Source: a virus
Strand: one strand, 5' to 3'
DNA length: 19,872 nucleotides
UHGV virus genome: UHGV-0107401
Shown here one piece after another: positions 5,609-7,228 of this stretch. How positions within the stretch are numbered: the first letter of the stretch is position 1; each line of letters begins with the position of its first letter. The position numbers and the translations under genes were made by a program. The notes beneath the pieces are model-generated. The model was not told the origin of the DNA, did no database searches, and saw only the letters and a program-made list of their open reading frames with translations.

Positions 5609-7228
5609 TTAAGCCTGGTTGTTGAAACTGGTGACCTGACGTTTGCCTGACTGGAACGGAGCCCAGGTGGCAGCAGGATCGCCTTCGAAGGTGCTGATCT
5701 GGCGACCGGTCGCATCAGCGCGTTTAATTTCGCGCAGCATGCCAGGGCCAACAGACAGGCTTGCCGATTTCTGCGCGTCGGCGTAGATCGTCTTCTCGGC
5801 TACGCTCAGCAGGGCTGAGTCAGCGATGGAGGACAGGTCGACGGATTTGAAGTCAGGCGAATGCTCCTGAAGCTGGATCATCAGGCGGCGGCGATATGCC
5901 AGCGGCTTTTCACCAGACAGCGGTACCGGCGCGCGCTTGCCGAAGCATGAGAACACGCTATCAGCCTTCACCTGTGCATCGGCGACTTCGTTGCGCTCTT
6001 CATCGCTCAACTCGGTTGGGATGCGGGAGCGCAGGTCGGCGATCTCCTGGCGCAGCTGAGAGTCAGCTTTTTCTTTCGCCATACATTCGGCCTCTTCGGC
6101 GTCGGCCTTCTCTTTGGCTTCAGCGTCTGCTTTTTCTTTCGCGGCTTTCTCTTCCGCGTCAGCTTTGGCTTTCGCCTCTTCGGCCTCTTTTGCCTCAGCA
6201 TCAGCCTTTTCTTTCTTGGCTGCTTCTTCGGCATCGGCCTTGGCTTTCAGGTCTGCTGCTTCTGAGTCAGCCTTAGCCATGCGTGCGTCAATCGCCTTAT
6301 TGATTAGCGCTACGATTTTTTCCTCGTCCATCTTTTCAGCCTCGTTTGGAATGGAATCAGATTTAACACCAGTAGGGGCAAGGAGCTTGTCCCATACGCC
6401 CTGTTCACAAATTGCAACGTGGTCGAGCAATACCGGGGAACCTTCCACCAATAGAGGCTGACCGTCGATTTTGATGATTGAGTCCTGCGCTTCGCTGTAC
6501 GTGACGGTTGGCGAGGTACTTAGCTGCCGTGTCGCCATAATTTCGGCGGCTTCGGCGTCGTACACTCGGCCAATAGTCCAGACCTCGCCATTATCAGCGA
6601 CCCAACTGTTCGTCAGGGTGCCGATAACACGCTTCGCAAATTCATCGCTATCGAGCTTGTTTTTCTCCGGGTGCAGCCAGATAAGCGGTACACCGGCAAC
6701 TCGCTGGAGAAACTCTGGGGTGAGATAGTCATCCGGGTTACGGAAGGCCATCTGTTGATCTGCAGAACGCCAGGTAACCCCTGTTCCGGTTACCCGGATG
6801 GCGAACATCCACATGTTGATAAAGAATTGCGGGCTGCTTAGCGTCCCGTCAGCGATGAGCGCGGCCACTTCGGTCTCATTGAGCGCCTGCTGCGCCAGCA
6901 TCTCAGCGAATGGCTGATGAAGCGGTTTGGGCATGTCGTCAATGTGGAACCATCCGGCGGCCAGCGATTCGTCGTTAAGCTTCGCCTCGAACCTCTCCGG
7001 CACCTCAGCGCGAAACGTCAGATAATCGCCGTATACGCTGTGTGGAGTGAGCGGGCCATCGTACTGATAACCCACCTCTTCCAGCACCTCTCGGCGCGCG
7101 GCATCAATAGCCAGCTCGCCCGGCTCTACCGTTCCGCCAGGCTGGCACCACGTGCCATCATCCGAGCGCTGGATCAGGAAGACGTACTTACCCTGACGGA
7201 ACATTATCCCGCTGCCAAAAATAGCCAC
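5609..7228 (-). CDS. Fusion protein: N-terminal Nudix hydrolase domain + scaffold-like (DUF2213-like) head protein with central Lys/Ala/Glu/Asp coiled-coil repeat (539 aa)
   Basis: Exact Nudix box GX5EX7REVXEEXGY in [24 protein letters not shown] (about 7066-7138). Long [19 protein letters not shown]... repeat (about 6100-6290). Sits between Mu-F-like gene and capsid, the usual scaffold/protease position. Track start is GTG at 7226-7228 with GGAG about 12 nt upstream; first ATG is 8 codons in. Confidence 0.7.

Follow-up and report, generated by a model that had tools for sequence, protein, structure and literature searches.

The virus genome UHGV-0107401, presented as a stretch of 19,872 nucleotides that we call here the window, contains a gene that raises a question: Why should a protein of phage head assembly begin with a Nudix hydrolase domain? 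The gene occupies positions 5609 to 7228 on the minus strand and encodes a protein of 539 residues, which a first-pass annotation made from the sequence alone had described as a scaffold-like head protein carrying a Nudix domain that might be virion associated and delivered with the DNA. Following up this proposal, we find a three-part head-assembly gene belonging to a temperate enterobacterial phage of the proposed Felixviridae group, in which a prohead protease lies between the Nudix domain and the scaffold part and an in-frame internal start precedes the latter; both the protease domain and the internal start had been overlooked. Our reading is that the Nudix domain, attached to a protease-scaffold protein with a nested scaffold gene, would lie inside the capsid and reach the next host together with the DNA, which the sequence evidence makes probable by a small measure. 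The parts of the gene on which the argument rests are the following.

5609-7228, minus strand: full-length gene for Nudix domain, prohead protease and scaffold, 539 residues, GTG start, stop codon at 5609-5611 (open reading frame list and translation)
7238-7242, minus strand: Shine-Dalgarno sequence AGGAG of the long product, 9 nucleotides before the GTG and overlapping the TAG stop codon of the MuF-like gene (read from the sequence)
6884-7228, minus strand: Nudix hydrolase domain, residues 1-115 (Pfam, AlphaFold2, Foldseek and substitution rates)
7067-7135, minus strand: Nudix box, residues 32-54, exact fit to the consensus
6359-6883, minus strand: capsid-maturation (prohead) serine protease domain of DUF2213 type, residues ~116-290
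6671-6673, 6518-6520 and 6419-6421, minus strand: candidate catalytic residues His186, Ser237 and His270, respectively
6340-6343, minus strand: internal Shine-Dalgarno sequence GAGG, 8 nucleotides before the Met300 codon (read from the sequence)
5609-6331, minus strand: predicted nested in-frame scaffold gene, Met300 to Ala539, 240 residues, ATG at 6329-6331
6023-6325, minus strand: helical, coiled-coil-like region rich in K, A, D and E, residues ~302-402
5612-6016, minus strand: conserved C-terminal domain, residues ~405-539, common to the long and short products

On the evidence of sequence and predicted structure, residues 1-115 are a Nudix hydrolase domain in which all the residues of the catalytic motif are intact and which evolves under strong purifying selection. 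The Nudix box that had been called exact does indeed fit GX5EX7REUXEEXGU, and Pfam NUDIX (PF00293) is matched over residues 10-112 with an E value of 7.4e-16 and 58.8 bits versus a cut-off of 21.1. An AlphaFold2 model of the full protein, built upon an alignment of 69 diverse family members (alignment A1), has a mean predicted local distance difference test score (pLDDT) of 87.6, with values above 90 over residues 1-115, which show the alpha/beta/alpha Nudix fold; every one of the top 50 solved structures that Foldseek matches in the PDB is that of a Nudix enzyme (probability 1.0, template modeling score up to 0.71), so that the structural check proposed for this domain came out in its favor. 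Of the rows of alignment A1, 60 contain Nudix; all of these have E38, R46, E47, E50 and E51, and 58 have E35. Nor are the catalytic residues degenerate among homologues, a case that the first-pass annotation had raised: of the best 150 representatives clustered at 50% identity, which are typically ~40% identical to the query, about 125 have G-x5-E-x7-RE-x2-EE-xG, and most of the others deviate only at the last Gly. Pairwise comparison of the window gene with 63-75 closer relatives gives a median ratio of nonsynonymous to synonymous substitution rates (dN/dS) of 0.066 in the Nudix domain; the protease, the helical region and the C-terminal domain have medians of 0.094, 0.067 and 0.049, respectively. 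PADLOC gives only a weak match of the protein to PDC-S07 (E 5e-6), which arises via the Nudix box and which we do not take as a sign of a defense role.

The remainder of the protein had been taken as a whole for scaffold, and this holds for residues ~300-539; residues ~116-290 form a protease, and the scaffold is very probably also encoded by a nested gene of its own. Sequence searches of the PDB, with either the single protein or the family profile, return Nudix enzymes only and nothing for the protease, and for this reason its assignment needed a fold search; since the Foldseek search with the whole model is saturated by Nudix matches, residues 116-300 were modeled separately. The predicted structure of residues ~116-290 carries the fold that characterizes the protease class of T4 gp21, HK97 and herpesvirus assemblin, and the matches of this middle domain in BFVD are DUF2213 proteins together with proteins named prohead serine protease. 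PHROG families of 'head maturation protease' match residues 159-387 (phrog_530, E 8e-14). Across the 69 rows of alignment A1, His186 and the stretch Ser237-Thr-Ser-Pro are invariant, and Asp269 and His270 are each present in 68; upon alignment with hhalign, His186, Ser237 and His270 correspond to His, Ser and His of Bcep781 gp14, a canonical DUF2213 protein. The catalytic triad of assemblins has the order His...Ser...His, and we regard His186, Ser237 and His270 as the candidate triad of the window protein.

Past the protease there is a variable linker that contains Met in almost every family member and Val, encoded by GTG, in a few; in the window protein this residue is Met300, and the lowest pLDDT of the full model falls at residues 297-300. 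We examined the linker for Shine-Dalgarno (SD) sequences in 27 loci, 25 of which derive from a scan of GTDB genomes, the others being the metagenomic contig of P0207 and one enterobacterial locus of 91% identity; the divergent loci belong to Rhizobiales, Burkholderiaceae, Nitrospira, Rhodanobacter, Singulisphaera, Limnocylindrus, Parcubacteria, Vulcanimicrobiota and others. In 26/27 loci an in-frame ATG or GTG of the linker is preceded, at a distance of 5-12 nucleotides, by an SD-like motif, as against 11.7% of control windows of 35 codons taken within the same open reading frames (binomial p about 1e-23, a value that overstates independence because the loci are related to one another, which weakens the case for our reading, the codons encoding the SD differing between loci). 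For the first ATG of the linker the SD is found in 20 of 23 loci, versus 8.6% of controls. The mean energy of the duplex with the anti-SD sequence is -7.4 kcal/mol at linker sites versus -3.4 kcal/mol at control codons, a comparison for which the candidate codons were picked by eye in a few loci, the window test being the unbiased one. Even the translated footprint of GGAG can be discerned, as a weakly conserved 'G-[DEV]' found 3-4 residues before the Met, and the combination of SD and in-frame ATG or GTG is kept exactly at the junction of protease and scaffold across relatives that are less than 55% identical. Phage biology offers clear precedents, since lambda C/Nu3 and Mu I/Z each draw from one frame a long protease product and a short scaffold with a common C-terminus. 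From the sequence, the window gene very probably yields two products as well, a scaffold of 240 residues and the Nudix-protease-scaffold protein of 539 residues. In Bcep781 gp14 (L125 7036-8427), hhalign places 'G-D-N-A-M' opposite the residues around the internal start in the window protein; judging from such sequences, a nested scaffold start may be general to DUF2213 proteases.

The long coiled-coil repeat that had been noticed in the scaffold part corresponds to the stretch rich in K, A, D and E, for which the model shows long helices at residues 302-359 and 378-402 and the DNA shows imperfect tandem repeats with periods of 75 and 33 nucleotides (TRF). The length of this region varies between close relatives, whose proteins have a total of 520-566 residues, and from this pattern the repeats of the scaffold spacer would seem to have expanded and contracted. 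Beyond it, the C-terminal domain shows pLDDT values mostly above 90, many nearly invariant residues and a dN/dS below those of the other three parts; if it works as other scaffolds do, it would dock onto the capsid protein.

In evolutionary terms, the Nudix domain is an accretion to the head-assembly protein. Several relatives without Nudix begin at query residue ~112-118 (e.g., P0199, P0212 and P0230, and loci L105, L106, L108, L112 and L120), and the homologues in Escherichia phage Rac-SA53 and in an Actinobacillus phage likewise start there without the domain. The nearest neighbors of these proteins by protease domain are usually Nudix-bearing, and this interleaving implies repeated loss or gain; as there is, moreover, no open reading frame with a Nudix box within 5 kb of the Nudix-less loci, the domain is accessory to assembly. 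It has also associated with other partners. Over 111 residues, the window Nudix and the domain that ends the Bcep781 portal at its C-terminus have 39% identity and share the tail 'LNDEH..W...P.PLH', and the identity of the window Nudix to domains on capsid-internal partners, namely the C-terminus of portals of the Bcep781 type and the N-terminus of the BcepB1A protease, amounts to 39-42%. Portal C-termini are established to face the capsid interior. Thus a single Nudix subtype has three or more capsid-internal carriers, since it occurs at the C-terminus of portals and in two protease families that have diverged from each other, and in the window the covalent fusion to the protease-scaffold provides the physical link to a capsid-internal head protein. 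P0207, of 857 residues, has an ADP-ribosyltransferase (ART) of the Alt/exoenzyme type followed by the Nudix-protease-scaffold arrangement, and its gene adjoins a MuF-like gene. The occurrence on several capsid-internal carriers, sometimes beside an ART, speaks most strongly for location inside the capsid as the property under selection, an argument from architecture. Within the family of the window protein, then, the N-terminus of the protease-scaffold is empty in some relatives, occupied by Nudix in most and by ART plus Nudix in at least one, a distribution from which it seems to behave as a cargo slot and from which the Nudix domain would be cargo of the capsid interior.

A few relatives present further variations at the N-terminus. 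P0244, of 1567 residues, has a portal-like start and domains resembling ribonucleotide reductase before Nudix-DUF2213; possible explanations are a genuine giant fusion, an insertion resembling an intein or an artefact of assembly. A domain of ~170 residues of unknown kind is common to P0140 and P0218, and P0140 has DUF5710 as well, and P0194, P0207 and P0238 begin with a motif resembling 'E-x-HPR-x3-G-x-F'.

The closest precedent among characterized phages is BcepB1A. Its gp26, annotated 'head maturation protease', has like the window protein an N-terminal NUDIX domain (PF00293), a DUF2213 protease and a scaffold part, and a nested gp25 'scaffold protein' is annotated at the equivalent position with GGAG 9 nucleotides upstream, as predicted here. 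The two phages share the head module, consisting of PF06381 portal, MuF-like protein, protease/scaffold, small virion protein and capsid protein, and the Nudix domains are 40% identical. The differences are nevertheless considerable: the protease and scaffold lie beyond BLASTP detection and fall in different families (phrog 3778 for BcepB1A, 6216 for the window), gp26 has about 45 extra N-terminal residues, and BcepB1A is a virulent Burkholderia myovirus, whereas the window gene belongs to an enterobacterial prophage. In Bcep781, Bcep1, Bcep43 and BcepNY3 the portal gp17/gp18 bears the same Nudix subtype on the capsid-internal part of a head protein within the same type of module; here, however, the domain is at the C-terminus of the portal (PF06381) and the DUF2213 protease gp14 is without Nudix.

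Head-linked Nudix domains have been surveyed before. Iyer, Burroughs, Anantharaman and Aravind (2022; Viruses 14:1977, PMC9503650) described Nudix domains fused to MuF, portal or capsid-processing serine peptidase, placed them in the clade of T4 NudE and hypothesized that they are packaged, injected and used for countering signals derived from nicotinamide adenine dinucleotide (NAD) and ADP-ribose (PMC9503650), extending the general theme of effectors fused to polyvalent proteins, MuF and portals (Iyer et al. 2017; PMC5512222). The domain combination was also noted in passing elsewhere (PMC8770471) and is listed in Pfam. The idea of a head-fused, injected Nudix is therefore a published computational prediction of 2022, which the first-pass annotation rediscovered independently. 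The two surveys do not include this enterobacterial clade, the nested scaffold start or evidence for the protease fold; as far as we found, what is added here for this clade is the assignment of the protease at the level of fold, the candidate triad, the statistics of the nested start, the selection on each domain and the optional nature of Nudix.

How would such a protein operate? The scheme that we favor is that Met300 initiates an abundant scaffold of 240 residues and the GTG a rarer Nudix-protease-scaffold of 539 residues, the two co-assembling with the capsid protein via their shared C-terminus, so that the protease and its Nudix passenger would come to lie inside the procapsid in the manner of lambda C/Nu3 and Mu I/Z. 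The protease would then digest the scaffold, and the compact Nudix domain might be freed or left in the head; entering the next host with the DNA, the ready-made enzyme could hydrolyze a small molecule of the NDP-X type (a nucleoside diphosphate linked to another moiety) or of the nucleoside triphosphate (NTP) type, or else the 5' end of RNA, before any phage gene is expressed, thereby acting as a takeover or anti-defense enzyme. For the part of this scheme concerned with assembly, lambda C/Nu3, Mu I/Z and the P2 gpO fusion are comparable in that a shared scaffold part targets the protease to the procapsid interior, as proposed here; they differ in that lambda C belongs to a ClpP/S49-like protease family and that the lambda, Mu and P2 proteins have no extra N-terminal enzyme domain. 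For the part concerned with delivery, T4 Alt is the classic enzyme packaged in the head and injected (PMC5512222, PMC9503650), and Alt and IPI-III enter the prohead by means of a targeting element, undergo processing by gp21 and are then injected, a likeness that we propose for the Nudix cargo. In T4, for which delivery has been shown, the element is however a short N-terminal peptide on separate proteins, whereas the putative cargo here is covalently part of the protease-scaffold. A broader version, which we put forward only tentatively and consider rather doubtful, is that the N-terminus of DUF2213-type proteins is a general cargo slot, whose enzymes (Nudix, ADP-ribosyltransferase and others) are freed by the protease and injected so as to destroy or pre-empt immune nucleotides, or to remodel the host, ahead of any phage gene expression, the Nudix being a virion-delivered anti-defense enzyme with a specific immune nucleotide as its substrate; by analogy, the slot might then be a covalent counterpart of the T4 capsid-targeting sequence.

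Several points speak against our reading, in addition to the relatedness of the loci mentioned above. It is common for a prohead protease to degrade itself and be lost from the capsid, which proteases and scaffolds normally leave in HK97 and lambda, and the Nudix domain could equally be degraded or expelled at maturation; if retained, a folded domain of 13 kDa would have to unfold for passing through the tail. Each step, from encapsidation and proteolytic release to survival in the filled head and ejection, is one that we infer; our literature searches, which did not cover the 2006 paper on the Bcep phages, retrieved no virion proteomics, enzymology or genetics for the Nudix-protease family. 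The model of the full protein has a predicted template modeling score of 0.58, leaving the orientation of the domains uncertain, and in the Pfam scan the window protein gives no match to PF09979 (DUF2213), a family which is listed in precomputed Pfam tables for near-identical proteins and which the relatives P0123, P0140, P0194 and P0244 match at 27-29 bits versus a cut-off of 22. Alternatively, the Nudix domain might act only in the producing cell, late in infection, its fusion ensuring late co-expression at a high level or placement at the assembly site, and then be degraded or expelled without ever being delivered; there it might blunt the nucleotide signals of defenses that sense portal, terminase or capsid proteins. 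The position of the gene in the late head operon agrees with such a role, and Iyer et al. (2022; PMC9503650) have suggested that head-linked enzymes may counter immunity aimed at the packaging apparatus. Against it, one type of Nudix is found on three capsid-internal partners, when a separate late gene would suffice for co-expression; the domain also co-occurs with an Alt-like ART, and the GTG start of the long form would suggest low rather than high expression. We consider action restricted to the producing cell unlikely on balance, yet deserving of serious attention, and retain delivery inside the capsid as the preferred reading.

Wherever the enzyme acts, its substrate requires separate consideration. 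When the family profile is compared with solved structures, the best match is the CTP pyrophosphohydrolase NudG (E 1.5e-15), followed by several MutT proteins (E 1e-14 to 1e-13), and ADP-ribose pyrophosphatases rank only after these; by sequence the family appears at least as close to NTP pyrophosphohydrolases of the MutT/NudG type as to ADP-ribose pyrophosphatases, which is another point against our reading, and the earlier guess of NAD or ADP-ribose derivatives is not favored because of this leaning. One may suppose a MutT/NudG-like (d)NTP pyrophosphohydrolase, as opposed to an ADP-ribose/NAD enzyme, that removes a harmful or signaling NTP such as non-canonical dNTPs, chain-terminating analogues or alarmones, a supposition that suits the minimal Nudix of ~115 residues seen in the model, without the extra N-terminal domain typical of ADP-ribose pyrophosphatases, and that fits either site of action. 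Overall similarity is, however, a poor predictor of Nudix specificity, and in Foldseek diadenosine tetraphosphate (Ap4A) hydrolases, MutT, NudC and Dcp2 appear at similar scores. The ART fusion in P0207, moreover, hints from its sequence at NAD/ADP-ribose chemistry, and T4 NudE (gene e.1), the relative of head-fused Nudix domains according to Iyer et al., uses ADP-ribose, flavin adenine dinucleotide (FAD) and diadenosine triphosphate (Ap3A), as well as NADH, according to its annotation and PMC9503650. NudE resembles the window case as a phage Nudix located beside late and virion genes; it differs in being a stand-alone protein of 151 residues that aligns with the window protein in BLASTP only over 34 residues around the Nudix box (53% identity, pairwise E 3e-8). 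All considered, we find this assignment improbable. Far less credible still is that Nudix is a non-enzymatic relic, as the first-pass annotation had allowed, or a pro-domain that regulates the protease or the scaffold: the scattered relatives without it do indicate that assembly proceeds without Nudix, but the metal-binding and catalytic residues of the box are invariant or nearly so at ~40% identity, the dN/dS is as low as stated above, and in the comparison with BcepB1A gp26 the Nudix domain has remained 40% identical to ours where the protease shows no BLASTP similarity. There is practically nothing to be said for an artefact of gene calling, with a true start downstream of Nudix or two genes merged in one, to which the GTG start and the strong internal start at Met300 might lend some color: the frame runs uninterrupted from 7228 and AGGAG precedes its GTG by 9 nucleotides, residues 1-115 are under purifying selection at the codon level, the architecture in a single reading frame recurs in most of the best 150 clusters at 50% identity, in many phyla, and the internal start adds a second product without removing the long one. 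Even the alternative start at Met9 would keep the Nudix domain in the product; the GTG is favored over it because residues 3-8 are conserved in homologues and strand beta-1 spans residues 5-12 in the AlphaFold2 model.

The genomic context agrees with a role in the head. On the minus strand, the order is TerS, TerL, portal, MuF-like gene, the Nudix-protease-scaffold gene, a gene for 286 residues and the major capsid protein, so that the position between portal/MuF and capsid stated earlier is right as to order, with the qualification that the 286-residue gene separates our gene from that of the capsid protein.

10830-11570, minus strand: TerS, by position
9495-10826, minus strand: TerL
8062-9483, minus strand: portal gene (PF06381, E 2e-19)
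7241-8065, minus strand: MuF-like head morphogenesis gene (phrog_324, E 7.5e-27)
4733-5593, minus strand: gene for 286 residues between scaffold and capsid genes (phrog_6268, function unknown)
3685-4716, minus strand: major capsid protein gene (phrog_6671, E 9e-183; phrog_264 'major head protein'; weak PF09950)

The MuF-like reading frame and that of 5609-7228 are in the same frame, with only TAG-GAG-CAT-TAA between them (7226-7245, minus strand); read-through from one to the other is ruled out by the two stop codons that intervene, and the overlap of AGGAG with the stop codon of the MuF-like gene suggests, from the sequence, translational coupling. By synteny, the 286-residue gene corresponds to BcepB1A gp24 'virion structural protein' and to gp13 'minor head protein' of Bcep781, and it probably encodes, to judge from these sequences, a minor head or decoration protein; residues ~170-240 of its product have a weak likeness to beta-barrel or Ig-like domains of virion fiber proteins.

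As to its distribution, the gene is matched over its full length by phrog_6216 (E 5e-246), corresponds to a RefSeq product also of 539 residues (WP_109536372.1, 'NUDIX domain-containing protein') and occurs with 100% identity in a prophage on the chromosome of E. coli 88COLEC, with copies of at least 80% nucleotide identity in 49 of 5,426 complete E. coli genomes. The proposed Felixviridae, which include Klebsiella phages and PdC23, are mostly temperate phages of Enterobacteriaceae from the gut (bioRxiv 10.1101/2024.12.02.626457). The first listing of homologues and a scan of IMG/VR contained mostly close relatives, and the diversity reported here comes from 50%-identity representatives and the GTDB genome scan. 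Among the 1.84 billion cluster representatives at 50% identity that were searched there are 3,601 relatives, the 576 with E<=1e-30 being as many clusters spread across many bacterial phyla.

Various names attached to these genes call for caution. The portal at 8062-9483 is called 'anti-CBASS protein Acb1 family protein' in RefSeq, even if nothing can be detected in it beyond the PF06381 portal domain and TIGR01555; this is probably an artefact of naming that can be traced to fusions of portals with 2H (Acb1-like) domains as in PMC5512222. The homologues of five Yersinia phages (e.g., vB_YenM_29.18, L003 5462-7093) are annotated 'glycosyl transferase', and that of Rac-SA53 (L127 5007-6299) has the product name 'TolA protein' and the note 'nudix' in spite of being a copy without Nudix; both labels look like misannotations. 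When residues 131-539 are searched alone, Pfam returns TolA, CDC45 and Vfa1, matches that we discard as low-complexity noise from the KADAE repeats; since these repeats drive the matches, the TolA annotation in some phage records is an artefact. Finally, a copy of 96% identity lies on a contig assigned to Sphingomonas (Sphingomonas sp. NPDC019816, L093), which is probably the result of contamination or mis-binning and not a true host.

The value of this gene is that of a well-defined test case, not of a new concept. Annotations of the family still go no further than 'NUDIX hydrolase', 'hypothetical protein', 'TolA' or 'glycosyl transferase', and recognition of the protease and the nested scaffold would correct many of them and show where these phages encode the protease and scaffold that had been missing. 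Culturable members exist in RothC/RothD, vB_Kpn_Chronis, PdC23 and the Yersinia vB_YenM phages, besides an E. coli prophage. If the Nudix domain is indeed packaged and injected, these phages would have an enzyme degrading small molecules that is present from the first second of infection, and hence, if true, a class of timing unlike that of the expressed anti-defense proteins Acb1, Apyc1 and the Tad sponges.

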